A DNA stretch of 64,000 bases from Candidatus Latescibacterota bacterium. Lineage in GTDB: Bacteria; Latescibacterota; UBA2968; GCA-2709665. Position numbers and translations under genes: made by a program. Every line of letters starts with the position of its first letter. The first letter of the stretch is position 1. The stretch lies in the NCBI GenBank assembly GCA_965116875.1, contig OZ220733.1:4192001-4256000 (forward strand), in the 5' to 3' direction. Under the pieces are notes generated by a model. That model had not been told where the DNA came from and made no database searches. It saw only the letters and a program-made list of their open reading frames with translations. Positions 453 to 54,324 of this stretch are shown here, piece after piece.

Positions 453-776
453 CAGTCCGTTGAAAAAGTCCATCCGGGCTACGGCCGGCCCTTGCGGTCG
501 AAATACTGCGTTGCGCTCCCTCGCCGAATCGCAGGATGGGACTCGGTCGCGCGCCTTGTCTTCGACCACAATGGCACGTGTTCCGCCCCGGAAATAGATC
601 GCCGAAATTCGGCCGCCGAGTCGCCCGACTGGCAAGGCGCCTGAGCAAGGCGACCTGCTTACGGTCTCCGAGCGAAGGCAACGCCGCCAGACGGGATGAA
701 TCGGCGGATGAATGGTGACATATTTCCGGGACGGGACACCAAGCCTCGCCTGCAGAGCGACTTTATCAACGGACTG
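453..776 (-). mobile_element. miniature inverted-repeat element family A, copy 1 (interrupted by a family C element)
   Basis: TIRs CAGTCCGTTGAAAAAGTC (453) and GACTTTATCAACGGACTG (ends 776). Outside 578-739 it is the near-identical reverse complement of 16486-16645. Confidence 0.85.
578..739 (+). mobile_element. miniature inverted-repeat element family C (162 bp), nested in element A1
   Basis: 19-bp TIRs GTGTTCCGCCCCGGAAATA / TATTTCCGGGACGGGACAC (17/19 match), internal palindrome, and absent from the A2 copy. Confidence 0.8.
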
Positions 777-3501
777 CTACAGGCCCGGTGTGCACGCTGA
801 AGACGATTTTCCACCGCTCGGCGGGAATGGCGTCATATCCGAGCCCGCCGCATTTGGTGTAGACGCAGGCCGACTCGCCGTCGCACTCAATATGCCGAAT
901 GGGATATCCCGTGTCATAGGCGCCACCCCGGACCAGCAGCGTGTTCCCGATCAGATTCTCATGGGAAGGCAACCCGTCGATCCTGTAGAAGCTGCTGGAA
1001 TTGTCCGTCTTCACGTCCAGGATCGATCCGCCGGCCATCGGCGTTTCCAGTTCCAGCACGTGATCGTCCAGTCTGGCCATTGCGCCGCCAAGCAGATAGG
1101 CAGACGCCGGTCGCCCGTCCGGCGCCAGGGAAAAAACGCAAACCCGGCCGTTCGTTTCAAGGGTTCCTCCGGGTGTGTCGAAAACGGCGGTTTGACCCTG
1201 GGGGGAGACCACCACGACGTCCGTGCCCGATTCCCGGGTAACGACAACGCCCGCGGCGTCTCCCGATACGGGCGCAAGCCGCTCCACTGCCGCAACGAAC
1301 GTACGGGAACGCGGACTCACGTCGAACAGGCTGAGAAAGACGCTGCAGGCGGGACTGCCGGTGCGGCGGCGGACCACATACGGAACGGTTTCACCGGTCC
1401 GGACGTTGTCGCGTGAGCCGGTGCCCCTTTCACCCCAACCCGTTCCGATCAGCACCTGCTCGCCGTCAGCCGGCAGGGCATGTGCGGTGAACCGCCGCCC
1501 GTCCAGGTCAAAGTGGATCGACCATGCACTCTCTGCGCGGGCGGCGGCCAGATCCGTCAGATCCCACCATTCGGCCCCGCTCGGGTGGAGGTCCAGGTTC
1601 CGCGGTACCCCCTCTGCCGCCGGTCCATGGAACAGATAGTCGTGAACGCGGCCGCCGGTCACCCTGAAGCAGTCGATCAGGTAGCTGCCTGTGCCGCCGT
1701 GGTCGATTACCGCGCACAGGCGGCGATACGTGTCGACGTCGTAGGCGCTGGATGATACTTCGGCGACCTTTACCCAACCGGTACTGTCGAACAGGTGGAG
1801 GCTGCCGCCGCGTCCCTCGCGTTTCTGGTCCTGCTCGTCGACGACCACGGTGTTGTGCGCGATGGTGCGAACGGTATTGTGTTTGTCCGGCCGATCCCAG
1901 AGGTAACCGAGATCGGTCAGGGCTTCATGTCCGTCTTTCCAGTAGACAAGATTCAGACTGTCTTCGTGGTGATGTCCGCCCCAGTCCGAGGCGCTGAGCA
2001 GCGCGGTACTCGTCCGTCCGTGTTCGCCGGTGCGAAGCAGGCCGATTCGCAGTGTTGGAAAGAACCGATCCGTAAGGATCAGCGGAGAAGACGGATCGGC
2101 TTTCAGGTCCGGGTCGCGATGGAAGAGGGCGTACTCTCCGCCGTGATTCTCCAGATCGAATTCGCACAGTTCGGCGAGCAGGGCGACGTGGTTCGCGTCG
2201 CCGTAGCGGGCGGCGATGATATCGGCAATGTCCGCGGACATCCTGCAGGCGGTTACGTCGTCGGCGATGACGCCATACCCGAGATCGGGCATCGGGCTCT
2301 TGACGTATCCCTCCAGTACCGCCCTGTACCGGCTGTCGCCGTAGATGTCCAGTTCCCGCGGGCCGGCTTCCGGGGCGCCCGAATCGGCTGACAGGGAGTA
2401 GCCATGCGCGGCGTCCGCGAAGTGTCGGATTCCATTGAGCGTCATGAATCCGTAACCCGGAGATTCGGAACTCATGCCGTCTTCCAGGAACCAGTTGTAG
2501 ACGAAATGATTGAACCCGTCCAGGCCGAAGCGGACCAGATTCGGATCGTCGAGACAAAGGCCGACGATGCCCGCGGCGGAGCGGTTGGTCGCGCTCTTGT
2601 TGTTGAAGTTCGGATCGGCCAGCAAAAGGATCGTGCTTTCGAGAAGCAGGTCTCGTTCGATCTTCCTGCGGGCTTCCGGGGTGTACACGGGACGGCCGGC
2701 GGCTCTTGCGCCGCGTGTGAGGTCAAAGGCGATCGTGACGTCGGAGACGAAGGTGCCCTCCATGCCCACGCCCGTGGCGCGCCCCGCCATCCAGTAACCC
2801 ACGTGCAACTTCCGGTCCGGACGGTTCGGCGGCACGACCAGTTCCGGCCTGGGCAGATCCAGGATATTTTTCGCGGCCTCCTCGGCCGGCGCGTCCGAAA
2901 ATTCGCCGTAGCCGGAGTGAACCATATACCCGGAATAGACCTCGGCGAATCGAAGGAGGATATCCCTGGTTCTTTCCGCGTGACCGATCTCCCGTGTCAG
3001 CACGTAGGCCAGCGCGCACTGGCGGGCCATGCGCCCCATATACTCGCATTTGCGGGCGCGGATGTTGGCGGTCCAGGACGAGACGAAGGGAAACCCGATG
3101 AGGTCCCAGTGTCTGCCCGTATAGTACGTGATTTCCTGTCCTCCGCCAAAGTCGGTCCTGAACACGACGTCTTCCGGGTAGTCCGAATTGGGATAGACGG
3201 TCCTGCAGGTCGTGCAGATCAGTTGATCGGGATTTTCCGGTTTCCAGCTGTAGTGCCCGTGGACGGGGGCCGCCTCGCAGGCCGGGCACATGGTGAAAAG
3301 CTCGCTGTTGGGCGTCTCGCGGGGAATCCACTGAATCAGATCGTCTCTCGTCAGACGAGGTATGACGGCGATCGACGCAAGCAGATCTTCGAGGAATCGT
3401 CGCGCCCAGACGTGGCGCTCGATGTTCAGGCGGGCGACGTCGAGGTCCTTCGGTTTGAAGAGGGTCGAGGGGGGATGGACCGGACGGGTATCACTCTCCA
3501 T
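766..3501 (-). CDS. heparinase II/III-like polysaccharide lyase family protein
   Basis: 911 aa ORF. NKSATN and ESPGY motifs in an alpha/alpha-toroid-like part; GGHHHEDSLNL, DLGY and HNTVVVD in the Hepar_II_III-like C-terminal part; N-terminal CPAC...CTTC motif. Confidence 0.75.
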   Translation of the reverse strand: MESDTRPVHPPSTLFKPKDLDVARLNIERHVWARRFLEDLLASIAVIPRLTRDDLIQWIPRETPNSELFTMCPACEAAPVHGHYSWKPENPDQLICTTCRTVYPNSDYPEDVVFRTDFGGGQEITYYTGRHWDLIGFPFVSSWTANIRARKCEYMGRMARQCALAYVLTREIGHAERTRDILLRFAEVYSGYMVHSGYGEFSDAPAEEAAKNILDLPRPELVVPPNRPDRKLHVGYWMAGRATGVGMEGTFVSDVTIAFDLTRGARAAGRPVYTPEARRKIERDLLLESTILLLADPNFNNKSATNRSAAGIVGLCLDDPNLVRFGLDGFNHFVYNWFLEDGMSSESPGYGFMTLNGIRHFADAAHGYSLSADSGAPEAGPRELDIYGDSRYRAVLEGYVKSPMPDLGYGVIADDVTACRMSADIADIIAARYGDANHVALLAELCEFDLENHGGEYALFHRDPDLKADPSSPLILTDRFFPTLRIGLLRTGEHGRTSTALLSASDWGGHHHEDSLNLVYWKDGHEALTDLGYLWDRPDKHNTVRTIAHNTVVVDEQDQKREGRGGSLHLFDSTGWVKVAEVSSSAYDVDTYRRLCAVIDHGGTGSYLIDCFRVTGGRVHDYLFHGPAAEGVPRNLDLHPSGAEWWDLTDLAAARAESAWSIHFDLDGRRFTAHALPADGEQVLIGTGWGERGTGSRDNVRTGETVPYVVRRRTGSPACSVFLSLFDVSPRSRTFVAAVERLAPVSGDAAGVVVTRESGTDVVVVSPQGQTAVFDTPGGTLETNGRVCVFSLAPDGRPASAYLLGGAMARLDDHVLELETPMAGGSILDVKTDNSSSFYRIDGLPSHENLIGNTLLVRGGAYDTGYPIRHIECDGESACVYTKCGGLGYDAIPAERWKIVFSVHTGPVAVR

Positions 3502-3631
3502 GGCGCTCTCGCTATGCGTTGGTTGTTGGACTTCTGGTGCGATTGATATCCCGAGATTTCACTCAGGACAGTCCGCCGTGGAGGCGCCGGATACCTGGCA
3601 GCGGCGGCGATGCGGCGTTGCCGGAAGTGTT

Positions 3632-4378
3632 TTACCCGTGTGCTCGTTCGAGGTAATCGGCCGCTCCCGCAGCGATCCACGGGCCGATGGTCGTCAACAG
3701 GAATCGTGCGCCGAGGTCCGTGTATTTCTCCACGTTGTCGCTGGTGGTGAGGGTTCCCGGCGTTCGTCCCGCGTCCCTGGTGCGGATCAGGGTCTCGTCG
3801 ACCGCGCGTTGAACGTCGGGGTGGTCGTTGTTGCCGATATGGCCCATCGAAGCCGCCAGATCCGACGGGGCGACGAAGAAGACGTCAATCTGATCCACCT
3901 CGAGGATCGCATCCAGGTTGCGCACCGAGACGATGTCCTCGATGAGCACGACCAACAGGGTTTCGTCGTTTGCGGTAAACAGGTAATCGGGTACATCATA
4001 ACCCTGGCGGCTGGTGAAGAGGCCGCGTTTTCCCAGCGGCGCGAACTTGCCGCCGTCGACGACGTTTCGCGCCTCTGCCGCCGTGTTGACGTGGGGGACG
4101 ACAATGCCCTGCGCGCCCCGGTCCAGCGTTCGGTAAATCAGGGCCTGATCGTTGCGGTTGACCCTGACGATCGAGGTCATCCCCCACAGGTCGCAGGCCC
4201 TCGTGAGGTTGCCGAGGTCGGCCGCGTTGACGGGTCCGTGTTCTCCTTCCAGCCAGATGCCGTCGAAACCGGTATTGCCGAAGGCGTCGACGTCGTCGGG
4301 ATGGGTGAAGCCGCTTGCGACACAGGCGATGCCGCCGTCAGCGAGTTTTCGTTTGACGCGGTTTGTCCGGATGGTCAA
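3632..4378 (-). CDS. HpcH/HpaI aldolase family protein
   Basis: FDGIWLEGEHG, LDRGAQGIVVPHV, KFAPLGKRG, VLIED and FVAPSDL motifs. Confidence 0.9.
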   Translation of the reverse strand: MTIRTNRVKRKLADGGIACVASGFTHPDDVDAFGNTGFDGIWLEGEHGPVNAADLGNLTRACDLWGMTSIVRVNRNDQALIYRTLDRGAQGIVVPHVNTAAEARNVVDGGKFAPLGKRGLFTSRQGYDVPDYLFTANDETLLVVLIEDIVSVRNLDAILEVDQIDVFFVAPSDLAASMGHIGNNDHPDVQRAVDETLIRTRDAGRTPGTLTTSDNVEKYTDLGARFLLTTIGPWIAAGAADYLERAHG

Positions 4379-4431
4379 GGGCAGTTCTCCTCTTCGTTGG
4401 GCCGCGTGGCGTGCAGAAGCCGGACACTCGT

Positions 4432-5217
4432 TCAGATCGAACGGGAGTTGCGGCTGAGGTCGATGCTTACGGGCGCATGGTCGGAAACGGTCAGTCCGGC
4501 CGCGCGGTGGACGGCTGCCTTGCGGAATCGTGCGGCGACGGCGGCGTTTCCCAGGAGGTAATCAATCCGCCAGCCACGGTCAAGTTCGCGGGCGCGACCG
4601 CGATTGGACCACCAGGAATAGGGCCCCTGCACGTCTCCGAAATGGTGACGGACAAGGTCGTTCCATCCGGTAGCCAGCAGGTCGGTCATCCACTGCCTTT
4701 CGTGGGGCAGGAATCCTGAGTTTTTCGCGTTTCCCCTGGCGTAGTAAATGTCTTTTTCGGTATGAGCAATGTTGAAGTCGCCTCCGAGGACCACGGGTTC
4801 GTCCCGCTGCGTGTATTTCTCCGCCCACGGCAGAAACCGGGCCATCCAGAGATCTTCCTTGATTTTCTGGCGATCTTCGCTGGATGAGCCCGAGGGCAGG
4901 TAAACGTTGACTACCCGGATGCCCTGTACCCGCGCCTGGAGGATCCGGCCTTCCGGATCCGACCCGTGGATACCGGCACCGAGAACCTCGAACTTATGGC
5001 GGGACCAGATCGCAACCCCGGAATACCCCTTGCGTTCCGCCGGATGCCAGTGGACGTACCAGCCGCGCGGACGGCTCCACTCAGCGGGCAGTTGTTCGGG
5101 AAGCGTCCGGATTTCCTGGAGGAGGAGTACGTCCGGAGCGATCCGTTCAACGTGACTGGCAAAGCCCTTTCTGATCGCGGCGCGCAGACCGTTGACGTTC
5201 CAGGTGGCTATTCGCAT
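4432..5217 (-). CDS. xth: exodeoxyribonuclease III
   Basis: MRIATWNVNGLRA, LQE, GYSGVA, GDFNIAH, YSWWS, GWRIDY and SDHAP motifs. Confidence 0.93.
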   Translation of the reverse strand: MRIATWNVNGLRAAIRKGFASHVERIAPDVLLLQEIRTLPEQLPAEWSRPRGWYVHWHPAERKGYSGVAIWSRHKFEVLGAGIHGSDPEGRILQARVQGIRVVNVYLPSGSSSEDRQKIKEDLWMARFLPWAEKYTQRDEPVVLGGDFNIAHTEKDIYYARGNAKNSGFLPHERQWMTDLLATGWNDLVRHHFGDVQGPYSWWSNRGRARELDRGWRIDYLLGNAAVAARFRKAAVHRAAGLTVSDHAPVSIDLSRNSRSI

Positions 5218-5270
5218 AGAGCCGGCGAGAGTGAGACCGCCTTCGGATTCCGTTGGCGGCAGTCGTTGAT

Positions 5271-7142: not shown

Positions 7143-7234
7143 GAAGAATCCTGAAGGGGTTGGCATCGGGCAGGGATAGCGGGTCGCCACCGGCGCAAGT
7201 TCCTCCGGTCCGGTCGGGCGCGTTTTCGAAAGTC

Positions 7235-7263
7235 AATATAGCGATCGGCAAATTGGGGGTCAA
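7235..7263 (-). promoter_or_regulatory. sigma-70 promoter
   Basis: Minus strand TTGACC-17-TATATT upstream of the lyase/xth/aldolase/lyase run. Confidence 0.55.
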
Positions 7264-7298
7264 GCAGATGTCATGCAGGGACAGAGCGAAGGGGTCGG

Positions 7299-8174
7299 CT
7301 ACGCGCGCTTTCTGGCAAGAAGGACGCGTTCGGTACCGGTGAGGTCGGAAACGGTCCGTTCATGGATGAACTCCGGCGATTTTTCCAGGAGCTCCAATAC
7401 GTCCGGAGCGGTACCGTCGGCGACTTCCAAAGCAAGCCACCCGCCCTTGCACAGGACGTCCGGCGCCCGGGCGATAATCAGACGGTGGAAGGCGAGCCCG
7501 TCCGGCCCGCCGTCGAGTGCGAGCGGGGGGTCGAAGCAGCGGACTTCGGGCTGAAGGGTACGCAGATCGCTGGCGGCGACATAGGGGGGATTTGAAACGA
7601 CGGCGTGGAACACGGCCCGCGACCGGAATGCGCAAAGAAGGTCCGCGCAAACGAAGGCAATCCGATGTTGTACATCGTTGCGACGGGCATTGCGAGCCGC
7701 GAGTCGGAGGGCTCTCGGGGAAACGTCGGTCGCGACCAGGCGGCTCCCGGGAAGCGTATGCGCAAGCGCTACGGCGACGGGACCGGCACCCGTACCGACG
7801 TCCAGTACAAGCGGACCGGAATGGGCATGCAGGCGGTCGACAAGCGTTTCGACGAGAATCTCGGTTTCCGGACGGGGAATGAGCGCGTCGGGGTCGACGT
7901 AAAAAGGCAGGGAGAAAAATTCGGTTTCGCCAAGCAAATGCTGAAGCGGCACACGCGCACGCCGCTTTTGTACGAAATCCCGAAGCCGTTCAACCTGCAC
8001 CGGCGTAAGTCGTCGACGCGGGTTCACGAAGATACCGGAACGGCTGGTTTCAAGGACGGCCGCAAGCAGCCACTCCGCGTCGGCACGAGGATCCGGTACG
8101 CCGGCATCCGCCAGGCTTCGCGCCAGAATGGCGAGGACGGCGGAGGTGGTGGGAAGCGAGGTGGATTCGGCCAT
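7299..8174 (-). CDS. prmC: release factor glutamine N5-methyltransferase
   Basis: LIPRPETE, LDVGTGAG, SNPPY and ALDGGPDGL motifs; lies downstream of prfA. Confidence 0.95.
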   Translation of the reverse strand: MAESTSLPTTSAVLAILARSLADAGVPDPRADAEWLLAAVLETSRSGIFVNPRRRLTPVQVERLRDFVQKRRARVPLQHLLGETEFFSLPFYVDPDALIPRPETEILVETLVDRLHAHSGPLVLDVGTGAGPVAVALAHTLPGSRLVATDVSPRALRLAARNARRNDVQHRIAFVCADLLCAFRSRAVFHAVVSNPPYVAASDLRTLQPEVRCFDPPLALDGGPDGLAFHRLIIARAPDVLCKGGWLALEVADGTAPDVLELLEKSPEFIHERTVSDLTGTERVLLARKRA

Positions 8175-9416: not shown

Positions 9417-9436
9417 ATATGCGAAACTCTGGTTGG

Positions 9437-16041: not shown

Positions 16042-16079
16042 GGCCGGCCGTAGCCCGGATGGGCTTGTTCAACGGGCTG
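16042..16079 (+). repeat. degenerate right-end remnant of miniature element family A
   Basis: GGCCGGCCGTAGCCCGGATGGGCTTGTTCAACGGGCTG matches the end of A2 (GGCCGGCCGCAGCCCGGATGGACTTTTTCAACGGGCTG). Confidence 0.7.
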
Positions 16080-16177: not shown

Positions 16178-16209
16178 CAGGGCAAACTCCAGAAAGGGGG
16201 TGAATTGCC

Positions 16210-16485
16210 ATGTCGAACAGGGCCGATTTAGTCGATGCTATCTCAAATCAGGCCGGTCTGTCAAAAAGGAATGCCGAAGGCGCACTGCGGGTCGTTCTGA
16301 ACGAAATCGCCGATTCGCTCAAAAGCGGTGATCGCGTCGCCATTTCCGGGTTCGGGACGTTTTCGGTTGGAACCCGAGCCGCGCGTACCGGTCGAAATCC
16401 TCAGACGGGCGAGACAATTCAGATTTCCGCGGGTAAAACCGTTCGTTTCAAAGCCGGCAAGGCGCTTAAAGACGCTGTCAATTAG
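16210..16485 (+). CDS. hup: HU family DNA-binding protein
   Basis: GFGTFSV..RAARTGRNPQTGETIQI..FKAGKALKDAVN. Confidence 0.95.
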   Translation: MSNRADLVDAISNQAGLSKRNAEGALRVVLNEIADSLKSGDRVAISGFGTFSVGTRAARTGRNPQTGETIQISAGKTVRFKAGKALKDAVN

Positions 16486-16645
16486 CAGTCCGTTGATAAA
16501 GTCGCTCTGCAGGCGAGGCCGAGCCAATGTGGTCGAAGACAAGGCGCGCGACCGAGTCCCATCCTTCGATTCGGCGAGGAAGCGCAACGCAGTATTTCGA
16601 CCGCAAGGGCCGGCCGCAGCCCGGATGGACTTTTTCAACGGGCTG
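16486..16645 (+). mobile_element. miniature inverted-repeat element family A, copy 2 (160 bp, uninterrupted)
   Basis: TIRs CAGTCCGTTGATAAAGTC / GACTTTTTCAACGGGCTG; abuts the HU stop codon; homologous to 453-776. Confidence 0.85.
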
Positions 16646-16676
16646 TTCGCCGGCATATCGCCAATTCCGCATCCAG

Positions 16677-40912: not shown

Positions 40913-42142
40913 TTAATCGCTATACACTTCCGTGTCCTGCCAGAAGGTGATCCAGGCGAACCAGAACGCGCTGTGCCCGGGGACCTGCTGCAGAACGCTG
41001 TCCTTGAGGGGACCCGCAATCGCACGGCCCTTCAAGTCCCAGGTGGTGAGTGTCTCCCGGTCCCGCAGCATAAAGGGATACGTCTGGGAGAGCGACGAAG
41101 TCCTGTCGAAGACCAGTGTCTGCTGCCCGTAGTCCCGGCTGAAGGCGACAGCCATCTGCTCGACGCCATACCAGACCACAACGATGTTTCTCCCTGCCAG
41201 GGTATCGTTGATCACCGCTTCGTCACCCAGCGCCGACGCGGGATATGCTTTTGGTTTTTCGATAAACCGAACGCCGAACGTCATCTCCTTTGGTGAAAAG
41301 AGACCTGCGAGCGGATTGTCTTCAAGACGCGGGAACACCTGGAACTTTGGCGCGGATTCGGGATCCCGGTACATTCCGTAAGGGTATACGTTATACTCGC
41401 TTGCGTCGTATGCGCCCGGCGTGTTGCTGCTGATGACAAACGTATCGGGATGGAGCTGTTTCCAGTATCGCCAGGTGGTTTCGACGAAGGGTGGGGTATT
41501 CAATACCCATCCCGCCCGTACGCCCGAGATGCCCGTATGGGTCATCTGGGGATAGCGAATCTGGTCGTCGTTCAGATCGTACATGATCAGGTTGTTGTTG
41601 AAGAGTTCTCCGGACGCGCCGAACTTCAGGCGGTTGATTGCGCCCCCGCTCCATGCCGAGAAAACGATGCCGCTGCCGGTTAACGGTGAAAACGTGACCA
41701 CAATGGGTTGCCCGCCAATCCGGTCGTTGACGATGAGATGGTACCACGCCATCTTCTGTGGGTAGGCCTTGGAAACGCCGTTGAGGCGCACGCCGATGAC
41801 CATGTCGTTATCCGACAGATAGCGAGCCTCAGCGGAAGCAGCCGGAACGAATCGCGGGTCGATCAGGGCGCGCGTTGCGTCCTTTTCGTAAACGCTCTCG
41901 ATCCTGTCGTGCGGAAACGTCAGGGGGTTCAGGAAATTGCGCCCGGTGAATTCAACCGCCGCGACACGGCTCGAGTCGGCGCCGCCCCCTGTGTTGTCCT
42001 GAAGTACGGTCCTGAACGTCCGGCCGCCGGAGCCTTCGGATTCGTCCTCTGAGTCCACGGGCGTCTCTTCGCCGCAATTGGAAACGCACAGGAGAAGCAG
42101 GGCGAGTTGCAGGCTGAATGACAATCGTGCGATCCACCGCAT
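40913..42142 (-). CDS. DUF3179 family lipoprotein (Cys-to-Ser variant)
   Basis: Lipobox; KAYP...WYHLIVND, FSPLTGSG, FGASGELFNNNLIMYD and AFWFAW motifs. Confidence 0.85.
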   Translation of the reverse strand: MRWIARLSFSLQLALLLLCVSNCGEETPVDSEDESEGSGGRTFRTVLQDNTGGGADSSRVAAVEFTGRNFLNPLTFPHDRIESVYEKDATRALIDPRFVPAASAEARYLSDNDMVIGVRLNGVSKAYPQKMAWYHLIVNDRIGGQPIVVTFSPLTGSGIVFSAWSGGAINRLKFGASGELFNNNLIMYDLNDDQIRYPQMTHTGISGVRAGWVLNTPPFVETTWRYWKQLHPDTFVISSNTPGAYDASEYNVYPYGMYRDPESAPKFQVFPRLEDNPLAGLFSPKEMTFGVRFIEKPKAYPASALGDEAVINDTLAGRNIVVVWYGVEQMAVAFSRDYGQQTLVFDRTSSLSQTYPFMLRDRETLTTWDLKGRAIAGPLKDSVLQQVPGHSAFWFAWITFWQDTEVYSD

Positions 42143-44887: not shown

Positions 44888-46057
44888 TCAGGGCTCGTAA
44901 ACCGAGGTGTCCTGCCAGAACGTCGCCCAGGCGAACCAGAATGCGTTGTGAGCGGGGATCTGATAGAGTTGGCTGTCCCTGAGTTCGCCCGCAAGCGCCT
45001 GGCCAAGCAGGTTCCAGCGGCTACCGGTTTCCCGGTCCTTCAACATAAACGAAAACCGCCGATCCGTAGAGGGTACGCGCTCGAACGTCAGTGTCCGATT
45101 GCCGAGGTCCCGAATAAAGGGCATCGCCATCCGCGCTGCGGCGTCGTAAACGACGAGGATGTTCCGGTCCGCGATCCTGTCGTTGATAACGGCCCGGTCG
45201 TCGCCCATTTGCGAAAAGGGATATGCCCTGGCAACGTTCCCGAATCGAACGCCAAGCACGATTTCCTTCGGAGGGTGATCGAAGAGGATTGGATTGTCGT
45301 CCGGATCCGGAAACAGGGGAAACATGGGCGCCGACGCCGGTTCGCGGTAGCCCGTGTAGGGGTACGTTGAGTAACGCTCCGGGCGGTACATACCCATGGA
45401 ACCCGAACTGACGACCAGCGTGCCGGGGTGGAGTTTTTTCCAGTTGCCCCATGTGGTTTCGACCACGGGCATCAACGTGAGTTCCTGTTCGGTTCCGAAG
45501 CCCTTGATGCCTATATGGGTCATCTGGGGGTAAAGGGTGTCCTCAAAGCGACGGTCGTACATTACGAGATTGTTGTTGAACAGCAGGCCGGAGACGCCGA
45601 GTTCCAGCCGTCCGTTGCCCTCGCCCTGCCCGTCGAAGACCATCCCGGTGCCGGTCAGCGGGCACAAAGTGACAACGAGGTGGCGGTCGCTCGCGGCGTC
45701 GTTGACGATTTCATGGTGCCAGCCGATATTGTGCGGGTAGGCCTTGGCGATGCCGTTGAGGTATACTCCGAGTACGAGATCCTCATCCAGAAGGTAGGCG
45801 GCGCCGGCCGAACCCGCGCGGACAAAATCCGGATCCGTCAGCGCCGGGATGCCGTCTTTGGCAACGCCGCCGCTGATCAGACGGTTCATGGGAAAGCGCG
45901 AAACGTCCAGAAAATTCCTGGAAGGCAGCTGCGTCGTGCCGCCCGCTTCGCTTCCGGATTCCGGGGGAGACTCCCCTGCGGGGGACGCGTTGCCGCCGCA
46001 GGCGGCGAAGGCGCCGGCAATAACGAACAGAAATGCCAGGTGAAGGAGGGGCTTCAT
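44888..46057 (-). CDS. DUF3179 family lipoprotein
   Basis: Lipobox FAA-C; SGGVAKDGIPALTDP, WHHEIVND, LCPLTGTG, GVSGLLFNNNLVMYD and AFWFAW motifs. Confidence 0.88.
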   Translation of the reverse strand: MKPLLHLAFLFVIAGAFAACGGNASPAGESPPESGSEAGGTTQLPSRNFLDVSRFPMNRLISGGVAKDGIPALTDPDFVRAGSAGAAYLLDEDLVLGVYLNGIAKAYPHNIGWHHEIVNDAASDRHLVVTLCPLTGTGMVFDGQGEGNGRLELGVSGLLFNNNLVMYDRRFEDTLYPQMTHIGIKGFGTEQELTLMPVVETTWGNWKKLHPGTLVVSSGSMGMYRPERYSTYPYTGYREPASAPMFPLFPDPDDNPILFDHPPKEIVLGVRFGNVARAYPFSQMGDDRAVINDRIADRNILVVYDAAARMAMPFIRDLGNRTLTFERVPSTDRRFSFMLKDRETGSRWNLLGQALAGELRDSQLYQIPAHNAFWFAWATFWQDTSVYEP

Positions 46058-46073
46058 ATGCGTCGTGTCCTAG

Positions 46074-47939
46074 TCTCTAATTAAGCGAGTTATTTCAGAT
46101 TTAAATGTATAAAAGTACCGGAAAGACTTATCTTTGTTGAAGTTAGCAGTCTCGGACGGGAAATTGCTACTCCAACGAAGGGGGCCTTTCCGGTGAAAAG
46201 AATATCGGTAAGAGAAAGCCGCAGGAACAGTACAAAATGTGGGCGCAAGGTACATGTACGGCAGAAGCGCGCGAGTCGCTTTTGTGCGCAAGGCAAGCCG
46301 ATGTTTGGCAGCACGCGTGTACATTACGAGGTCAGCGCAGATGGGCACGCGATGAGCTACGGTGGCATCACGGCGGTGCATCGCCTGGTGACGAAGTTGG
46401 GCTTGGTCAAGGAAATCGACGCGAGGTTGCAGTTGTTGAAGGTGCATCTGCCGTATCACGAGTCGGATCATGTGTTGAACCTTTCCTACAACATCATGTG
46501 CGGCGGCACGCGTCTGGAAGATATCGAGCGTTTGCGACATGACGTGGCCTACATGAATGCCTTGAACGCGGATCTGATCCCGGATCCGACGACCACGGGT
46601 GACTTCACACGTCGCTTCACCGAGGCCGACGTGATCGAGCTGATGGATTGCATTAACGCGGTACGCGCCAAGTTGTGGCGCACACGCGCTACCCGAGACC
46701 TGGCAGGGGTGGCATACATCGACGTGGATGGCACCAGTGCGCCAACGTATGGGCAGAAGAAAGCCGGTATGGACATTTCCTACAAGGGCGTGTGGGGATA
46801 TGCGCCTTTGATCGTGTCGTTGGCCAATACCAAAGAGGTGCTGTATGTGGTCAACCGTCCGGGCAACGCGTCTTCTCACCAGGGCGCCGCATCCTGGATC
46901 GATGCGGCCATCTCCTTGGTGAAGCCCCACGCAGGGCGCGTATGCCTGCGCGGCGACACGGATTTTTCGCTCACCGGTCACTTCGATCGCTGGGCCAAAA
47001 ACGTCGATTTCATCTTCGGCATGGACGCCAACGAGGCCTTGCGAACACGGGCCGAGGCGCTTGACGAAGCGGCCTGGCATCGCCTGCACCGGCCTGTCGC
47101 GCCACAGAAAAGGCACCGACGGGACAATGAGAAGCAGCGCATCGTCAAGGCGCGGGGCTACCTCACCCTGGCGCTCAAGTTCGAAGACGTGGCACAGTTT
47201 GACTATCAGCCCGGCAAGTGCGAACGGACCTACCGCGTCGTGGCCGTGAGAAAAAACATCTCCAAGACGAAAGGCGAGCAGACCCTCTTCGACAATATCC
47301 GGTATTTCTTCTACATCACCACGCGCCACGACCTCACACCTGCCGAAGTCGTCTTTGCGGCCAACAAACGTTGCGACCAGGAAAACGTCATCGAACAACT
47401 CAAAAACGGTGTCAACGCCCTGCGCGTGCCCATGTATGACCTGATCAGTAACTGGGCTTACATGGTCATCGCCGCACTGGCCTGGAACATCAAGTCGTGG
47501 TTTGCCATGATGATGCATCGCATCAAACACCGCCGGCACTATATCCGGATGGACTTTCGCACCTTCCTCAACCACATCATCCTGTTTCCCTGTCGTGTGG
47601 TGAGAAACGCGCGAAGCACCACCGTGCGCATCATCGGCTATCAGCCGTCCCTGAGCAGACTCCTAAGCGCCTGGGCCACCATCGAACGCACCGGCTTCAC
47701 CTGACACCAACTCGAAGGATGACCGCAGATCACCACAGCGTTCGCGTCCATCATCACGCAACGGACCCTTACGCCCAAATCACACACAACCGGTCGCTTT
47801 ACACAGCAAACTCACCTCGACAGACCTCTGTACGACCTCACGCCATCACCATTTGCCAGGCACCATTGCTCTCATCAACCCAAACGCACCAAAATGCGCC
47901 CTTCGGCTCAACAAACAACAATACTCGCTTATTTAAGGC
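46074..47939 (+). mobile_element. IS1380-family insertion sequence (about 1.87 kb)
   Basis: Imperfect TIRs TCTCTAATTAAGCGAGT / ACTCGCTTATTTAAGGC (13/17), flanked by the direct repeat CTAG (46070-73 and 47940-43); lower GC than the flanks. Confidence 0.88.
46193..47704 (+). CDS. IS1380-family DDE transposase
   Basis: LPYHESDHV, PDPTT.GDF.RRF, IDVDGT, LRGDTDFS, RCDQENVIEQLK and NWAYMVIAALAWN motifs. Confidence 0.92.
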   Translation: MKRISVRESRRNSTKCGRKVHVRQKRASRFCAQGKPMFGSTRVHYEVSADGHAMSYGGITAVHRLVTKLGLVKEIDARLQLLKVHLPYHESDHVLNLSYNIMCGGTRLEDIERLRHDVAYMNALNADLIPDPTTTGDFTRRFTEADVIELMDCINAVRAKLWRTRATRDLAGVAYIDVDGTSAPTYGQKKAGMDISYKGVWGYAPLIVSLANTKEVLYVVNRPGNASSHQGAASWIDAAISLVKPHAGRVCLRGDTDFSLTGHFDRWAKNVDFIFGMDANEALRTRAEALDEAAWHRLHRPVAPQKRHRRDNEKQRIVKARGYLTLALKFEDVAQFDYQPGKCERTYRVVAVRKNISKTKGEQTLFDNIRYFFYITTRHDLTPAEVVFAANKRCDQENVIEQLKNGVNALRVPMYDLISNWAYMVIAALAWNIKSWFAMMMHRIKHRRHYIRMDFRTFLNHIILFPCRVVRNARSTTVRIIGYQPSLSRLLSAWATIERTGFT

Positions 47940-48164
47940 CTAGTGAAGGAAACCCGCAAACGCGCTGCCCGGTTGAGCGTGTTCGATGCGCGGGGGATCG
48001 CGGCTGTCGTATCAAATCTAACCAGTTTGAACACGAAAAAAAAGTACAATAAGAGCCAGTTCCACGTATTTTCATGGCAGGTTCCGGGATTATCGTGTCA
48101 ACCCGGCTCGCAGTACAGGCAGAAAATATCAATTCCGGCGGGAATGGGATTCACACCATAGTTC

Positions 48165-48193
48165 TTGCTTTTGCGACGAACCATGTCTACATT
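48165..48193 (+). promoter_or_regulatory. sigma-70 promoter upstream of element B1 and uvrB
   Basis: TTGCTT-17-TACATT. Confidence 0.5.
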
Positions 48194-48199
48194 ATCTGT

Positions 48200-48361
48200 G
48201 AAGCTGTCTTAATATTACCGGTGAGTTCCCGAGCGCGAGCGAAAACGTGTCGGTCAAGGCGGGAGAATCCGCCCATATCTGTCTATACGGGCGGGTTTGA
48301 CCAACGCCGGCCGGCGCTATTGCAGCCGCGCGAAGACCGCCGGGGATTTTAAGACAGCTTC
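48200..48361 (+). mobile_element. miniature inverted-repeat element family B, copy 1 (162 bp)
   Basis: Perfect 13-bp TIR GAAGCTGTCTTAA / TTAAGACAGCTTC; homologous to the reverse complement of 54163-54324. Confidence 0.85.
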
Positions 48362-48411
48362 TATACATTTGGTCACTGTATTCTGGCTGCGAACGTGTCA
48401 TGAGGTTGATG

Positions 48412-50421
48412 ATGAATGGATTTAGGGTCCAGGCGCCGTTTGAGCCGGCGGGCGACCAGCCGGAGGCAATTGCTGAGTTGAGCGACGGCATCCGGCGGGG
48501 CGACCGGTTCCAGACCCTCCTGGGGGCGACGGGAACGGGCAAGACGTATACGATCTCGAAAGTCATCGAGGCGATACAGATGCCTACCCTCGTTATCTCG
48601 CACAACAAGACGCTGGCGGCTCAGCTGTATGGCGAATTCAAGACGTTTTTCCCGGACAACGCGGTGGAGTATTTCATTTCCTATTACGACTACTATCAGC
48701 CCGAGGCGTATAAGCCGGTGACGGACACCTTCATCGAAAAGGAAGCCGACATCAACGATGAGATCAACCGGCTGCGCCTGCGAGCGACGAGCGCGCTCAT
48801 GGAGCGCCAGGACGTGATCATCGTGGCCAGCGTGTCCTGCATCTACGGGATCGGCAATCCGGAAGAGTACGAGGGCATGCACGTCATGATCGACCGGGGG
48901 GACAGGGTGGACCGGGACGAACTGCTTCGCCGGCTGGTGGACATACACTACACGCGGAATGACGTGGATTTCGGACCGGGGACATTTCGCGTGCGCGGCG
49001 ACGTGGTGGAGATCTATCGACCCGAGAGGGACGATCCGGTTCGCGTGGAATTCTTCGGAGACGAAGTGGACGCCATCAGTCTGGTGCAACCCGTGACCGG
49101 GGAGGTGCTGGATTCACGGGAACGGGCCGCGATTTATCCCGCGCGGCACTTCGTGACCAGCGGACAGCGGATCGAGCAGGCCATCTGGCAGATCGAGAAT
49201 GACATGGCTGCGCAACTGGAGGCGTTCAAGAGCCAGGGAAAACTGCTGGAGGCCCAGCGGCTGGAGACCCGGACGCGTTACGATATCGAGATGATGCGGG
49301 AGATCGGCTACTGCGCCGGAATCGAGAATTACTCCAGGTACATCGACGGCAGGGAGCCCGGCCAGCCGCCCCACGTGCTGCTGGACTATTTCCCGGAGGA
49401 ATTTCTGATCGTCATCGACGAGTCGCACGTGACGTTGCCGCAGATCCGGGGAATGTGGAATGCCGACCGGTCGCGGAAGACGACACTGGTGGAACACGGG
49501 TTCCGGCTGCCCGCCGCTCTGGACAACCGTCCGCTCTATTTTGATGAATTCGAAGGCAAGGTGAACAGGGCGATATTCATGTCCGCCACACCCGCGGACT
49601 ATGAACTGGAGATGACAAAGGGAATTGTGGTCGAACAGATCATCCGTCCAACCGGGATTCTGGATCCGGAGATGCTGGTGCGTCCCGTGCGCGGTCAGGT
49701 GGACGATCTGATCGATGAGGTCCGCGAGAGGGTGGGCCGCCGGGAACGCGTGCTGGTCACCGCGCTGACCAAGAGAATGTCCGAGGACCTCGCCGAATAC
49801 ATGCGGGACCTGGGTATCCGCGCCCGCTATATGCATTCGGAAATCGACTCGTTGGAACGGGTCGATATCATCAGGGCGCTGCGCCTGGGCGAGTTCGACG
49901 TTCTTGTGGGCGTGAATCTGCTGCGGGAAGGATTGGATCTGCCTGAAGTGTCCCTCGTTGCGATCCTGGATGCGGATAAGGAGGGCTTCCTGCGCTCCAC
50001 GCGTTCGCTGATTCAGACGGCGGGGCGCGCGGCGAGGAATCTGGCCGGCCAGGTCATCCTGTACGCGGACCAGGTAACGGACTCCATCCGACGGGCAATC
50101 GACGAGACCGACCGCAGGCGTCAGGTGCAGCAGGCATACAACGAAAGGCTGGGTGTTGTGCCCGAGACGGTCTACAAGAGCCGGGACGAGATCCTGCAGG
50201 CGACGGCCGTTGCCGATGCCAGGCAGGAGGAGATGCCGGCTGCGGCGGAGGAAACGTCCGGGTACGAGGCCGGCGCCAGTATTACCGACATGATTGCGGA
50301 TCTCGAAGACAAGATGGCCAGGGCTGCGGCGGAACTGGCGTTCGAGCAGGCGGCCGAATACCGGGACCGGATCAACCGGCTGAAATCGGGCGCGCAGGGG
50401 GTCTCCGACGACGCTGCGTAG
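48412..50421 (+). CDS. uvrB: excinuclease ABC subunit B
   Basis: [51 protein letters not shown] and a C-terminal UVR coil; start 48400-48412. Confidence 0.98.
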
Positions 50422-50436
50422 GCGGAAAGAGCGACT

Positions 50437-51303
50437 GTGATGTCGGACCTGACGGAATGGCATGGCCTCGACCGCGTGGTCGACGCCGCGATCATGGAAG
50501 ACGTGGGCGACGGCGATATTTCAACCGCCTGGACCGTGCGCCCGGATGCGCGGGCGCGAGCCGTGCTCGTCGCCAGGGAGTCAGGTGTGATTGCGGGTCT
50601 GGCGGTGGCCGGACGGGTGTTTCACCGGGTGGATTCTCGAATTCGGATGACGCCGGGAACGGAGGATGGCGAGCGCGTCGAAGAGGAGGACGTGGTGGCG
50701 GAAGTCGCGGGCCCTGCGCGCGGCATCCTGACGGCGGAGCGGACGGCATTGAATTTCCTGCAGCGCATGTCCGGAATCGCAACACTGGCGGCGGCCTACG
50801 TGGCGGCCGTTGACGGAACGGGCGTCAGGATTCTCGACACACGGAAAACCTCGCCCGGGCTGCGGATACTGGACAAATACGCGGTAGCCGCCGGGGGAGG
50901 AACGAACCACCGCTCCGGCCTGCACGACATGGTGCTTCTCAAGGAAAACCACATCGAAGCGGCGGACGGCATCGGACCGGCGGTCGCGGCGGTGAAATCG
51001 GCGATGGCCAGAGACCGCAGGCGGGTGATGATCGAAGTGGAGGTGAAGACCCTTCGCGAACTGGACGACGCGCTTGCGGTGGGCGTAGACCGGGTGATGC
51101 TGGACAATATGGATCTGAACACGATTCGACTCGCGGTGGCGCGGGTGAGGGCCGCAGGACCCGAAGGCCCGCTGCTCGAAGCATCCGGAAACGTCACCCT
51201 TGAAACCGTTCGAGCCGTTGCCGAGACCGGCGTGGACCTGATTTCGGTTGGCGCACTGACGCATTCGGCGCAGGCCATGGATGTGAGCCTGCTGTTCCAA
51301 TGA
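50437..51303 (+). CDS. nadC: nicotinate-nucleotide diphosphorylase (carboxylating)
   Basis: EDVGDGDIST, ERTALNFLQRMSGIAT, DTRKT, KENH, MLDNM and ISVGALTHS motifs. Confidence 0.96.
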   Translation: MMSDLTEWHGLDRVVDAAIMEDVGDGDISTAWTVRPDARARAVLVARESGVIAGLAVAGRVFHRVDSRIRMTPGTEDGERVEEEDVVAEVAGPARGILTAERTALNFLQRMSGIATLAAAYVAAVDGTGVRILDTRKTSPGLRILDKYAVAAGGGTNHRSGLHDMVLLKENHIEAADGIGPAVAAVKSAMARDRRRVMIEVEVKTLRELDDALAVGVDRVMLDNMDLNTIRLAVARVRAAGPEGPLLEASGNVTLETVRAVAETGVDLISVGALTHSAQAMDVSLLFQ

Positions 51304-52322
51304 GCGCGAAACGGGCGTATGGTTTGAAGGGACCTTCAGCCTTCGCGGGTGGCGCCGAAACGCCGGATTCCTATCGGGTTCTCGAGGCGCTTGGCAAACA
51401 ACGGGCAATGCACGTTCCCGTTTCGGAAATTGCCGTCGCGCTTTCGTGCAGACCCGACGACGTGCGCTGCTCGGTTGAAGCGATGCGTCGTCTCGGTTAT
51501 TCTGTTTCGGAACGACCTGGAGAGGGCATTCGCCTGGCCACCGAAACCGACGTGATCGTCCGGAGCCGACTTCGGGAAGGACTCGGTTCCCGTGTTCTGG
51601 GCCGTTCCCTCGCCTGCTTTCTGGAGCTGGATTCGACCAATGCCCTGGCAACCCGGGCCGCGCTGACCGGTGCGGCGCACGGCACGGTTGTGCTTGCGGA
51701 ACATCAGAAGGCCGGTCGCGGTCGCCTGGGCAGAAACTGGTTTTCGCCGCCCGGCGTGGGGCTCTGGTTCTCCCTGATACTCCGTTACGATTTGGAAGTC
51801 GCACGCGCCTGGATGCTTACCCTCGGCGCGGCCGTTGCGCTCGCCGACGCCGTTGAGGCTTCAACCGGTGTATGCCCGGACGTCAGGTGGCCGAACGACC
51901 TGTACCTGAACGATCGCAAGCTGGCGGGCATCCTTACCGAGGTGCGCGGCGGCGACCGCGGTCTGGACTTCGCCGTTCTCGGCATCGGGATAAACGTCAA
52001 TCAGGAGGAGGCTGACTTTCCTCCGGGCCTGCAGAATACCGCGACGTCCCTTCGGTGTGGCACGGGTCGGACACACGACCGGACGGCGATGCTGGTGGAA
52101 GCGTTGCGGGCGTTGGAACAGGTTTACGCCGGGCTCGATGCCGAACGGATCCGGAAACTGTGGACGGGCAAAGCCCGGATGCTGGGCAACCCGGTTTGCA
52201 TCAGGACGGGTTCCGGCCCGGTCCGGGGTGTGGCGGAGGATCTCGGGACCGATGGCGCGCTGCTGGTTCGGGGCGGGGACGGCAGGGTCCGGAGGGTCCT
52301 GGCCGGCGACGTGGGAGTGTAG
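51300..52322 (+). CDS. birA: biotin--[acetyl-CoA-carboxylase] ligase with N-terminal HTH
   Basis: DSTN, QKAGRGRLGRNW, RWPNDL, KLAGILTE and GIGINVN motifs. Confidence 0.93.
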   Translation: MSAKRAYGLKGPSAFAGGAETPDSYRVLEALGKQRAMHVPVSEIAVALSCRPDDVRCSVEAMRRLGYSVSERPGEGIRLATETDVIVRSRLREGLGSRVLGRSLACFLELDSTNALATRAALTGAAHGTVVLAEHQKAGRGRLGRNWFSPPGVGLWFSLILRYDLEVARAWMLTLGAAVALADAVEASTGVCPDVRWPNDLYLNDRKLAGILTEVRGGDRGLDFAVLGIGINVNQEEADFPPGLQNTATSLRCGTGRTHDRTAMLVEALRALEQVYAGLDAERIRKLWTGKARMLGNPVCIRTGSGPVRGVAEDLGTDGALLVRGGDGRVRRVLAGDVGV

Positions 52323-52393
52323 AGTTTCTTCACGTTGGGACCTTAATCAACGGTTCGCGGTCTTCGGACAGCATGCCGGATTTGCTGACCTGA

Positions 52394-53161
52394 ATGTTTC
52401 TTGCATTCGACATCGGAAATTCCAGTATCGGCTGCGCCGTGTTCGACGGCGAAGAACTGCGGACTCGCTGGCGCATGGACACGGGGCTTGCCAGCACTGC
52501 GTACGCAACGCGCCTTGGCCGCGTACTGGAACGCGCGGGCATAGGGGCCCCGGGGTTGGAAGGCGCCATTGCGTCGTCGGTGGTCAGAGGGTTGACGGAA
52601 GTGATGGGCAGGGCCGTCCGGTCGGTGGCGGGGTGTGATCTGATGGAGGCAAATCCCCATGCCGATCCCGGCATCGACGTCGCCGCCGAGAAGCCCGAGG
52701 CCGTTGGCGTCGACCGGCTTCTGGCTGCCGGGGCCGCGTTCAGACAGGTCGGCGGTTCCGTCATCGTAGTTGACGTTGGCACAGCCCTTACAGTCGATCT
52801 GGTTTCCGCCGCGGGGTGTTTCATGGGCGGAACGATCTCGCCGGGCCTCAAGGCCATGGCAGAAGCGCTTGCGACGGGGGCCAGTTTGCTGCCTCATGTG
52901 GACATCACAGCGCCTGCATCGGCGTTGGGGCGGGACACGCCGGAGTGTATTCGGGCGGGTGTGGTGTTTGGGGCGGCCGGAGCCGTGGATCGGCTGGTCG
53001 AAGAGTTGAAAGACGCAACGGACGGAGCGCCGAGGGTCGTTCTCACCGGCGGCGACGCGCCGATCCTGTCCCCCTATCTCAAATCTCCGCACGATTCCCA
53101 ACCCGACCTGGTTCTGCGAGGGTTGGCTTACGCATTCATGAAACGACAGCTGAAAACGTAG
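52394..53161 (+). CDS. coaX: type III pantothenate kinase
   Basis: DIGNS, ASSVV, GVDR, VDVGTALTVD, GGTISPG and TGGDA motifs. Confidence 0.94.
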   Translation: MFLAFDIGNSSIGCAVFDGEELRTRWRMDTGLASTAYATRLGRVLERAGIGAPGLEGAIASSVVRGLTEVMGRAVRSVAGCDLMEANPHADPGIDVAAEKPEAVGVDRLLAAGAAFRQVGGSVIVVDVGTALTVDLVSAAGCFMGGTISPGLKAMAEALATGASLLPHVDITAPASALGRDTPECIRAGVVFGAAGAVDRLVEELKDATDGAPRVVLTGGDAPILSPYLKSPHDSQPDLVLRGLAYAFMKRQLKT

Positions 53162-53205
53162 ACGAGCGGAAGAAGAATTCCCGCGGGCTGAATTCCGGAG
53201 TGGGT

Positions 53206-54045
53206 TTACGAAACCGCGTTACCGTTCGGTTCCCTGGCGGCCGATTCGACGAGCGATTTCAGCGTTCTCAGGTTACGTTCCGCGGTTGACAGCGCGTCTT
53301 CCATGGGAGGCGTCTCAAACACGAGCGGGCCGGCGTAGTCCACGTCAACCAGCGCTTTCAGACAGCCCTCCAGGTCGATTTCGCCCTCGCCCACGTAACA
53401 GGGAGTCCGGTCTGTTCGCGGGTCTTTGATATGGACCTGTACAATCCGGTCTCCAAGGCAGCGGATATCCGCGACAGAGTTGCTGCCCAGCATCTGGGCG
53501 TTGCCGACGTCGAAGTAGGCCCCAACGTTCGGATTGTCCACCGCATCGATCAGCTCCATCATTTGCTCACCGGTCACGACGTGGCTGCGCCCCACGTTCT
53601 CCAGGCCGATGCGGACGCCCTGGCCGGCCGCGTGTGTGGCCACGGCGCGGGTTTCGTACGCCCAGCGATGGGCGGCCTCGTGCGGGGGCAATCCCAGCGG
53701 ATTCGTGACCGGAATGAGTATGGTCCCGATGCCCAGGACTCTGCAGGCGTGAATGGCCTGGAAGACGATCTGTTTGGCCATGAAGCGGTTCGCCACGTCC
53801 GGGTCGGCAAAGGTGAAATGCCAGAACGTGTGAAGACATACGGAGAAGACAGGAACGCCGGCCGATTCAGCGCGCCGTCCCAGCGCGTCGATGCCCTCAT
53901 CGTTCCAGAGGTCGGAGGCGCGGTAGGTGCCTGCCCGAACGCCCAGCTCAACGCCGTCGTAACCGAGCGCTTTCGCTCTGGGGAACACATCCACCCAGTC
54001 TGATTTCAGTACGTCTTCCAGGATACCGAATTGAAAACGGTTCAT
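53206..54045 (-). CDS. sugar phosphate isomerase/epimerase family protein
   Basis: GYDGVEL, GLENV, YFDVGN, VHIKD, GEGEID and FET motifs; start ATG 54045. Confidence 0.88.
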   Translation of the reverse strand: MNRFQFGILEDVLKSDWVDVFPRAKALGYDGVELGVRAGTYRASDLWNDEGIDALGRRAESAGVPVFSVCLHTFWHFTFADPDVANRFMAKQIVFQAIHACRVLGIGTILIPVTNPLGLPPHEAAHRWAYETRAVATHAAGQGVRIGLENVGRSHVVTGEQMMELIDAVDNPNVGAYFDVGNAQMLGSNSVADIRCLGDRIVQVHIKDPRTDRTPCYVGEGEIDLEGCLKALVDVDYAGPLVFETPPMEDALSTAERNLRTLKSLVESAAREPNGNAVS

Positions 54046-54162
54046 TGCCTTCCTTCCCGAAATCGATGGTTCCGCTTGAACAGGAAGCCCATCTCGCCGC
54101 AATCATAGCGAAAAAGAGAATGGATCGGGTCCGGGCTCCGGGATTCCGCTGTTTCCGGCCAA

Positions 54163-54324
54163 GAAGCTGCCTTAAAATTCCCAGCGGTCTTCGCACGGCT
54201 GCAAAAGCGCCGGTCGGCGTTGGTCAATTCCACCCGTATAGGCAAATATGGGCGGATTTTCCCGCCTTGACCGCCGCTTTTTCGCACGTGCTCGGGAACT
54301 CACCGGTAATTTTAATACAACTTT
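54163..54324 (-). mobile_element. miniature inverted-repeat element family B, copy 2 (162 bp)
   Basis: GAAGCTGCCTTAA ... TTAATACAACTTT (decayed TIR); colinear reverse-complement homolog of 48200-48361. Confidence 0.82.

Follow-up and report, generated by a model that had tools for sequence, protein, structure and literature searches.

One internal double-bulge module in hairpin repeats with unlike ends, from a Latescibacterota genome to enterobacterial ERIC

Short palindromic repeats of three kinds, designated families A, B and C, lie in the window analyzed here, by which we mean the whole 64,000-nt stretch at positions 4192001-4256000 of contig C1 of a Latescibacterota genome (G000; 5.45 Mb, 59.6% GC). 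Their bodies are short, non-coding and 160-162 nt in length, which is the anatomy of MITEs (miniature inverted-repeat transposable elements). Each carries the motifs CAAGGCG and CAACGC(A/C)G, which face one another in the folded element and form what is referred to below as the module. The copies in the window, together with the gene that adjoins one of them, are as follows.

453..776, minus strand: A::C composite, a family A copy (453-577 plus 740-776) split by a family C element
578..739, plus strand: family C element of 162 nt, nested in A; CAAGGCG at 633-639, CAACGCCG at 679-686
16042..16079, plus strand: family A remnant, the 3′ terminal 38 nt, with 92% identity to 16608-16645
16210..16485, plus strand: gene for an HU-family DNA-binding protein (PF00216, E 2.1e-33), its stop codon within the target duplication of the A element
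16486..16645, plus strand: family A element of 160 nt, an imperfect palindrome; CAAGGCG at 16540-16546, CAACGCAG at 16585-16592
48200..48361, plus strand: family B element of 162 nt; CAAGGCG at 48255-48261, CAACGCCG at 48302-48309
54163..54324, minus strand: family B element of 162 nt in reverse orientation; module at 54217-54269 on the minus strand

The positions and lengths of the elements and of the A remnant had been given in the original prediction, and all were confirmed by reading the coordinates. The terminal inverted repeats differ, with A beginning CAGTCCGTTGA, B GAAGCTGT and C GTGTTCCG and the complement of each standing at the opposite end; in the family B copies of the window, the arms are 88% complementary. 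The motifs have the fixed placement that was predicted for them. In the family consensuses, the 5′ arm measures 54-55 nt, the interior 38-40 nt and the remainder after CAACGC 54-55 nt (54/38/55 for A, 55/40/54 for B, and 55/39/55 for C), and the pattern CAAGGCG-N36-42-CAACGC occurs five times in the window against an expectation of 0.02, a count that none of 100 shuffles reaches. Family C contains a second CAAGGCG 13 nt past the first, and it was the fitting one of the two that had been picked originally.

A, B and C are multi-copy hairpin MITEs. BLAST finds 37, 71 and 15 full copies of them, respectively, in G000; five of the C copies sit inside A, and the remainder make up a subfamily, C′, at ~80% identity. 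Family A is flanked by a target duplication of 4 bp, perfect in 16 of the 37 copies (for example CTAA, TTAG, and ATAA), family B by one of 3 bp, perfect in 31 of 71 and mostly TAA, TTA or TGA, and C and C′ by TA or CA (2 bp), often in a CTAG-like context. At the HU gene, the TAG stop codon (16483-16485) is the insertion site of the element at 16486-16645, and the contig of a relative, from a public run, joins 16484 to 16649, omitting 164 nt. This is the length of the 160-nt element plus its 4-bp duplication, so that the contig presents the empty site of family A, the kind of evidence that the original prediction had proposed seeking in relatives. A::C composites number five, at five loci, each with A-type 4-bp flanks of its own, which indicates a single insertion of C into A and, later, movement of the two together as 324 nt. 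In G000, only these families have the exact motif pair. Counted from start to start, the spacings of the motifs have peaks at 45 (46 times), 46 (5), 47 (52), and 71 (7), representing A, C, B and a 186-nt variant of B, respectively, and each other spacing from 8 to 70 occurs 1-5 times; in the 186-nt variant, the apex has been replaced and both motifs are retained.

Alignments between the arms of A, B and C score no higher than those of shuffled sequences (z ≤1.8, with 25-413 of 500 shuffles reaching the score), and this non-alignment rules out, for arms and ends, that the three are simply diverged copies of one MITE; the lengths of their duplications differ as well. The interiors of A and C, however, do align (z 2.05), as do those of A and C′ (z 4.7, reached by 0 of 500 shuffles). 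BLAST recovers family A from each of the 14 species in the genus and from none of 26 further genomes in its family and order. Across 168 genomes scanned with a looser form of the motif pattern, matches stand far above a reversed control in every genome of the genus, and they are also enriched in one sister-genus genome and, within another family of the class, in many genomes; counts for pattern and control in example genomes are 104 vs 2, 44 vs 1, and 29 vs 0. Five other genomes of the class furnished examples of A-, B- and C-type elements, along with further end types around the module, and the relatives also hold mosaics, in which an A-type core lies within C-type arms or the inner arms of A are joined to different termini. 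The proposal of three unrelated families thus stands for the arms and ends but not for the interiors, those of A and C being alike and the relatives holding intermediates. The interchangeability of the ends, also proposed, is borne out by target duplications of 2, 3 and 4 bp and by end sequences that cannot be aligned. We are highly confident that A, B and C form one superfamily defined by its central module rather than unrelated families, and it is very probable that the ends of this superfamily are exchangeable.

Each of the three consensuses folds into a single rod of −89 to −98 kcal/mol (ViennaRNA), and the succession first described from the sequence, of stem, internal loop, GCG:CGC, CAA bulge and apical hairpin, is given or allowed by the program. 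Within the rod, the motifs lie opposite one another. The 5′ strand has a paired C, a bulged AA and then GGCG, which pairs with CGCC (in family A the partner is CGCA, leaving a G·A), and on the 3′ strand a bulge of CAA (or AA) lies just past this helix. The module therefore reads C-AA-GGCG on the 5′ strand and CAA-CGCN-G on the 3′ strand, that is, two A-rich bulges on opposite strands with a 4-bp G/C helix between them. Either strand of the rod thus reads CAA-(G/C)GC-(G/C) in one and the same direction, so that the palindrome encloses a direct repeat. Beyond the helix, A and C continue with three pairs and a GA facing a GA, then two pairs and a second GA facing a GA, and finally the apical hairpin; in most families, the module is likewise followed by tandem G·A pairs (GA-nn-GA on both strands) and then by an apical hairpin.

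A strict form of the pattern, with 21 fixed bases, was searched for in Bacteria and Archaea, with one genome per species, and occurs at 122 loci at least; the phyla named here are likewise a lower bound. Among the matches listed, the record titles include Actinomycetota (Streptomyces, Kitasatospora, Nocardioides, Actinoallomurus, and Gordonia), Bacillota (Lachnospiraceae, Blautia, Syntrophomonas, Acetivibrio, and Sarcina) and Gammaproteobacteria (Colwellia, Psychrobium, and Alteromonadaceae), with further records from Gemmatimonas, a metagenome-assembled genome (MAG) of the Myxococcota and MAGs of the Latescibacterota. Rods with mutually pairing flanks account for 99 of the 123 matches listed, or 98 of the 115 with full flanks, and the flanks seen in cross-phylum examples are TA within CTAG or TNA. 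Complete genomes have many copies, as judged against a reversed-pattern control: 244 vs 2 for Psychrobium, 69 vs 13 for one Streptomyces and 32 vs 8 for another, 44 vs 18 for Actinoallomurus, and 18 vs 2 for Nocardioides. The strict pattern is absent from all of 400 other genomes sampled from the phylum of Psychrobium, which makes chance matches negligible and the distribution patchy, as for transferred mobile DNA. This null, the window shuffles and the piles of spacings in G000 together rule out a chance origin of the motif pair. The cross-phylum class of mobile hairpin elements that was originally proposed does exist, since the module is found in rods of at least five other phyla.

In the Psychrobium family (232 strict-pattern copies in genome G170, with TNA duplications), the GC-rich module is kept within AT-rich arms (41% GC). 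Its copies along 2.0 Mb of that genome lie in convergent gene gaps 27 times and in divergent gaps five times. The Myxococcota MAG contributes a near-perfect palindrome of ~240 nt (locus L174) with C-like ends (GTGTCCTGTTCCGGAA) and the same module, from which it follows that arm length is not fixed. An association with phages was dropped because 2.9 million viral contigs yielded only two loci. No family in Rfam 15 corresponds to these elements; nothing in the window reached the gathering score, and 12 cross-phylum loci gave two chance-level hits only, so that the full match to a described family which would have undercut the original prediction did not appear. Likenesses to the hammerhead, the K-turn, the signal recognition particle RNA and loop E were considered and dropped for misfits of order or polarity.

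Covariation was assessed on 59 non-redundant cores, in which the motif positions are fixed by the search pattern and hence uninformative, and the surrounding helices are not fixed. Standard pairs fill 82.0% of cells against 57.1% after shuffling, cells changed on both sides number 364 against 141.5, and the covariation score is 0.602 against 0.188 for shuffles and at most 0.152 with the partners slid; none of 500 shuffles reaches what was observed. The rod on which the original prediction was built is thus supported by covariation. For a comparison of strands, the core was removed and the two 52-nt arms were joined. Measured in this way, the motif strand folds more stably than its complement in 106 of the 111 elements from across the phyla, 31 of 32 from other genomes of the class, and 107 of 113 from G000, and G·U pairs on the motif strand and its complement number 523 vs 132, 147 vs 41, and 513 vs 200, respectively, in these sets; copies within one family are not independent, and the cross-phylum set spans many families. 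Greater stability on the strand of the module argues that the module acts as a single strand of that sense. Selection for a strand-specific fold is, in our judgment, probable.

ERIC copies of E. coli K-12 were located using the published ERIC2 primer. In two of them, L183 and L186, CAAGGCG and CAACGC(A/C)G face each other, and the classical ERIC inverted repeat is the apical hairpin between the motifs, with GA-GT-GA opposite GA-AC-GA. A covariance model, R1, was built from the 59 cross-phylum cores, none of which comes from E. coli or G000. In the window, it matches C at E 3.6e-16, both A copies at 4.2e-14 and 1.4e-12 (the latter at 16486-16645) and B at 48241 with 1.6e-4; the B copy at 54163 was not reported at E up to 1. 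In E. coli, it matches the ERIC copies L183 (4.7e-6), L186 (4.5e-5), and L179 (0.01). The statement in the original prediction that ERIC/IRU holds the module was therefore correct. ERIC belongs to the cross-phylum superfamily, and it is the only described member that could be identified. What defines the superfamily, a module in a rod that is more stable on the motif strand, is found in A, B and C, and L183, L186 and L179 are tied to it through their matches to R1. A, B and C are not ERIC/IRU in the strict sense: the central inverted repeat is wanting, their apical hairpins differing from the ERIC apex, and a TA duplication is seen in C only, that of A being 4 bp and that of B 3 bp.

Listed in ISfinder as MITEEc1, with MITEPlu5 as its Photorhabdus counterpart, ERIC is likewise a hairpin MITE, with the module in some E. 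coli copies and a TA duplication like that of family C. It differs from A, B and C in its length of ~127 nt, its arms of ~25 nt, a longer apical hairpin and an extra internal loop, and it has no sequence similarity to them outside the module. The ruler-like distance proposed between module and ends, nearly constant in the consensuses of A, B and C, is loose, given these short arms, arms of ~95 nt in a Myxococcota copy and motif spacings of 45-71. In reviews, ERIC is presented as a MITE of Enterobacteriaceae with TA flanks, in which no motif besides the terminal repeats had come to light (PMC2229807, PMC3184786); co-transcription and orientation-dependent effects are also reported (PMC2229807). 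The statement that the mobilizer of ERIC is unknown is too sweeping, since a Photorhabdus study reports that the ends resemble those of a subset of IS630-type elements (PMC6267812). No account of a cross-phylum core was found in the literature searched; the ERIC motif was possibly noted by De Gregorio et al. 2005 or Wilson and Sharp 2006.

As to what moves the elements, a relative, G103, contains a 1168-bp element (positions 1501-2668 of locus L216, on G103:C1) with the same 19-nt ends as the C-type rods of genomes G104 and G106. It is intact, has TA within CTAG on its flanks and codes for a protein of 362 aa bearing helix-turn-helix and DDE_3 domains (E 3.1e-21), the frame of which ends in a TAG made with the duplicated target TA. 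Past the ~19 terminal bases it has nothing in common with the rods, and the rods are therefore not its deletion products. Family C, with its TA duplication and with ends that match an IS630-family element, is an IS630/Tc1-mariner-mobilized MITE. From the duplications, which are YTAR-like and 4 bp long in A and of the form TNA and 3 bp long in B, we infer IS5-like transposases for these two families; ISfinder descriptions give 3-bp TNA or 4-bp YTAR duplications for the IS5 family. A match of the terminal repeats to an autonomous insertion sequence, which the original prediction suggested seeking, was obtained for C-type ends in G103 and not in G000, where no autonomous partner of A, B or C was found. 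The candidates rejected in G000 were its sole IS630-like element (L044), which has other ends and lacks the module, a single 324-aa IS5-like gene (L045), which lacks A or B ends, and pairs of A ends 1.7-5.4 kb apart, which enclose ordinary genes; the 1765-bp pair encloses a 486-aa open reading frame for a putative membrane protein, as read from its sequence. Stowaway-type (Tc1/mariner/IS630) and Tourist-type (PIF/Harbinger/IS5) MITEs are likewise short and non-autonomous, have only terminal repeats in common with their partners and make TA or TNA duplications. They are defined by their ends, whereas here a single internal module extends across end-classes and phyla, with a strand-specific fold.

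In the explanation that we favor, A, B and C are three end-classes of a widespread superfamily of hairpin MITEs, ~125-240 nt in length and mostly ~160 nt. Each member is a long imperfect rod, the termini of which are inverted repeats by construction and have been matched to whichever DDE transposase is at hand; arms, ends, base composition and hosts differ from member to member, and the module persists. The module would act in the single-stranded form of the motif strand, and we infer that this form is read by something conserved. It would be RNA, transcribed from the element along with neighboring genes, in which the pseudo-symmetric double bulge might be where some conserved RNA-binding enzyme of the host docks or cuts, one that is dimeric and specific for double strands in the manner of RNase III; the defined fate of the transcript would then keep insertions tolerable. 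As a whole, from the superfamily to the RNA-level double-bulge site, this explanation seems to us evenly poised between right and wrong, and the more particular claim, that the module is a site for a presumed protein at the RNA level, falls slightly on the doubtful side of that balance. RNA is favored because the elements adjoin stop codons (33 of 123 G000 copies abut a called one), because they appear to be transcribed with genes, because of the excess of G·U pairs and because of the RNA-level effects reported for ERIC and Correia elements. An enrichment of G·U pairs is the usual sign of an RNA fold. Correia elements (NEMIS) of Neisseria are described as hairpin-forming MITEs with a TA duplication that are co-transcribed and give RNA hairpins that are RNase III substrates (PMC2229807); in Correia, only the terminal repeats pair, unlike the full rods here.

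Several results weigh against this reading. The RNA-library contig that spans 16184-16526, from the HU gene into the A element, is an assembled contig and not proof of transcription; uncovered parts of the stretch are uninformative, and the small share of X2 represents a relative, not this organism. An RNA that worked only in sense would be expected to show a bias of orientation, and none was seen: tandem gene contexts in G000 gave 42 same vs 40 opposite, the copies abutting stop codons 18 sense vs 15 antisense, and 2.0 Mb of the Psychrobium genome 16 vs 19, with gene calls that were crude throughout (GC content at third codon positions or longest reading frame). The module is also incomplete in C′, which retains CAAGGCG and has GAACGTAG in place of CAACGCNG as its second site, and in most of the K-12 ERIC copies inspected, which read GGAAGGCG and lack the second (3′) motif; R1 detected three of the 12 K-12 ERIC loci, the other nine not being reported. 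Core-less elements with A ends have multiplied, with 4-bp duplications, in forms of 58 nt (17 copies), 84 nt (~20), 53 nt (5), and 99 nt (5), the 84-nt form having a different small hairpin (examples are C1:488231-488288 for 58 nt and C1:132906-132989 for 84 nt), and their spread means that the transposase of A does not need the module. Finally, shared variants of family B show an excess of G·T changes, described below, that has no counterpart in the Psychrobium family (16 vs 14 for shared and 9 vs 8 for single-copy variants).

The lack of orientation bias relative to genes keeps well alive a role in single-stranded DNA, in which the module would be a cis aid to propagation: the motif strand, once unwound, would fold, and a DNA enzyme or the transposition machinery would read the double bulge. 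This would account for a fold that is strand-specific, yet independent of the direction of neighboring genes, and G·T and sheared G·A pairs are stable in DNA too. In family B, variants shared by several copies favor G·T over A·C (17 vs 5 events) and single-copy variants do not (13 vs 14), as fits selection at propagation, but it is this bias that the Psychrobium family lacks. Nearly all elements with C-type ends carry the core (81 ends vs 44 cores in G104, 192 vs 104 in G106); core-less A elements, on the other hand, have spread, and DDE transposases act on duplex ends. Nor is there a consistent replication bias, the motif strand lying on the leading-strand sequence in 69 of 123 G000 copies and 42 of 105 Psychrobium copies, which are opposite trends in a test that is weak for G000, its origin being placed by GC skew only with the two skew extremes separated by 1.9 Mb in a genome of 5.45 Mb. 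The analogy is with integron attC sites and with single-strand replication origins, both of which are read as folded strands. The attC sites are defined by structure, with unpaired bases that mark one strand, as in the hairpin elements; they differ in being recombined by the integron integrase, in having no target duplications or terminal repeats, and in their conserved bases. On all of this, we think it unlikely that single-stranded DNA is where the module works.

Very improbable is that the module has no function and is the slowly decaying relic of a horizontally spread common ancestor. The patchy distribution (0 of 400 other genomes in one phylum), the alignable interiors of A and C, and the decay of the module, both in C′ and in the majority of the E. 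coli ERIC copies inspected, would suit a relic. Arms and ends, however, have passed beyond alignment and base composition is that of the host, yet 13-21 core bases are identical across phyla; the helices around these invariant bases covary; and in family B, as in several types from Streptomyces, the interior is a different one and nothing but the two motifs has been kept.

No single duplex-binding factor is known to be common to all these phyla, which counts against a role in duplex DNA, where the two motifs would be a direct repeat bound by, say, a bending or accessory protein that helps to bring the ends together. Such a repeat would fit the occurrence of CAA-G/C-GC twice in the same direction on one strand, near the center of short elements, and the central protein site of some Correia elements, reported for IHF (PMC2229807), but it is made highly improbable by spacings that vary from 45 to 71, by motifs that always face each other in the fold and by a strand asymmetry of the arms that would be meaningless for duplex DNA.

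The boldest reading is suggested by the archaeal bulge-helix-bulge, which likewise has two short bulges on opposite strands, a 4-bp helix and pseudo-two-fold symmetry. The likeness is one of shape only, and the bulges here are 2-3 nt and sequence-specific and the hosts are bacteria. By analogy, a dimeric endonuclease might cut the transcribed rod in both bulges and RtcB might reseal the arms, freeing the apical hairpin, perhaps as a small circle. RtcB is present in G000; the splicing endonuclease domain (PF01974) has no match in G000 and was found in four archaeal controls, and a bacterial counterpart of this kind is, in our opinion, a long shot. If it were true, the repeats would partly remove themselves from host messages, and a portable module with unrelated ends in many phyla would be explained. 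The sole RtcB gene of the genome (C1:4741256-4742630) has a 58-nt family A mini adjoining its stop codon, which probably reflects nothing other than the stop-codon-like target of the family.

ERIC repeats have been used for strain typing for more than 30 years. They have a module in common with high-copy hairpin repeats of several phyla, whichever transposase moves these, and this suggests some conserved partner or else an intrinsic function; it also shows that hairpin repeats can swap ends between transposon families. The pattern and the covariance model together offer a search key for annotating thousands of unlabeled repeats.

G000 is rich in repeats of other sorts, with 898 intervals covered at least four times by self-matches, and its other abundant short repeat families are without the exact motif pair. 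They comprise a group of ~200-220 nt with ends TAACCTTGATTCG...CGAATTGAGGTTA (57 and 20 copies), a further group of ~93 intervals and, separately, a 116-nt palindrome present nine times. Within the window, a 1.87-kb insertion sequence with six copies in the genome occupies 46070-47942, 260 bp before the B element at 48200, and its 539-aa frame matches DDE_Tnp_1 (PF01609). The run at 56937-57160 consists of degenerate 8-nt units (TCTCGTAT / TTTCGCAG and similar) at spacings of 8, 23, and 31 nt, and includes 11 overlapping copies of an 83-nt register. The stretches 40932-41632 and 44907-45610 have 72-85% identity in several blocks, 3975-3978 bp apart, and are probably paralogous neighboring genes.

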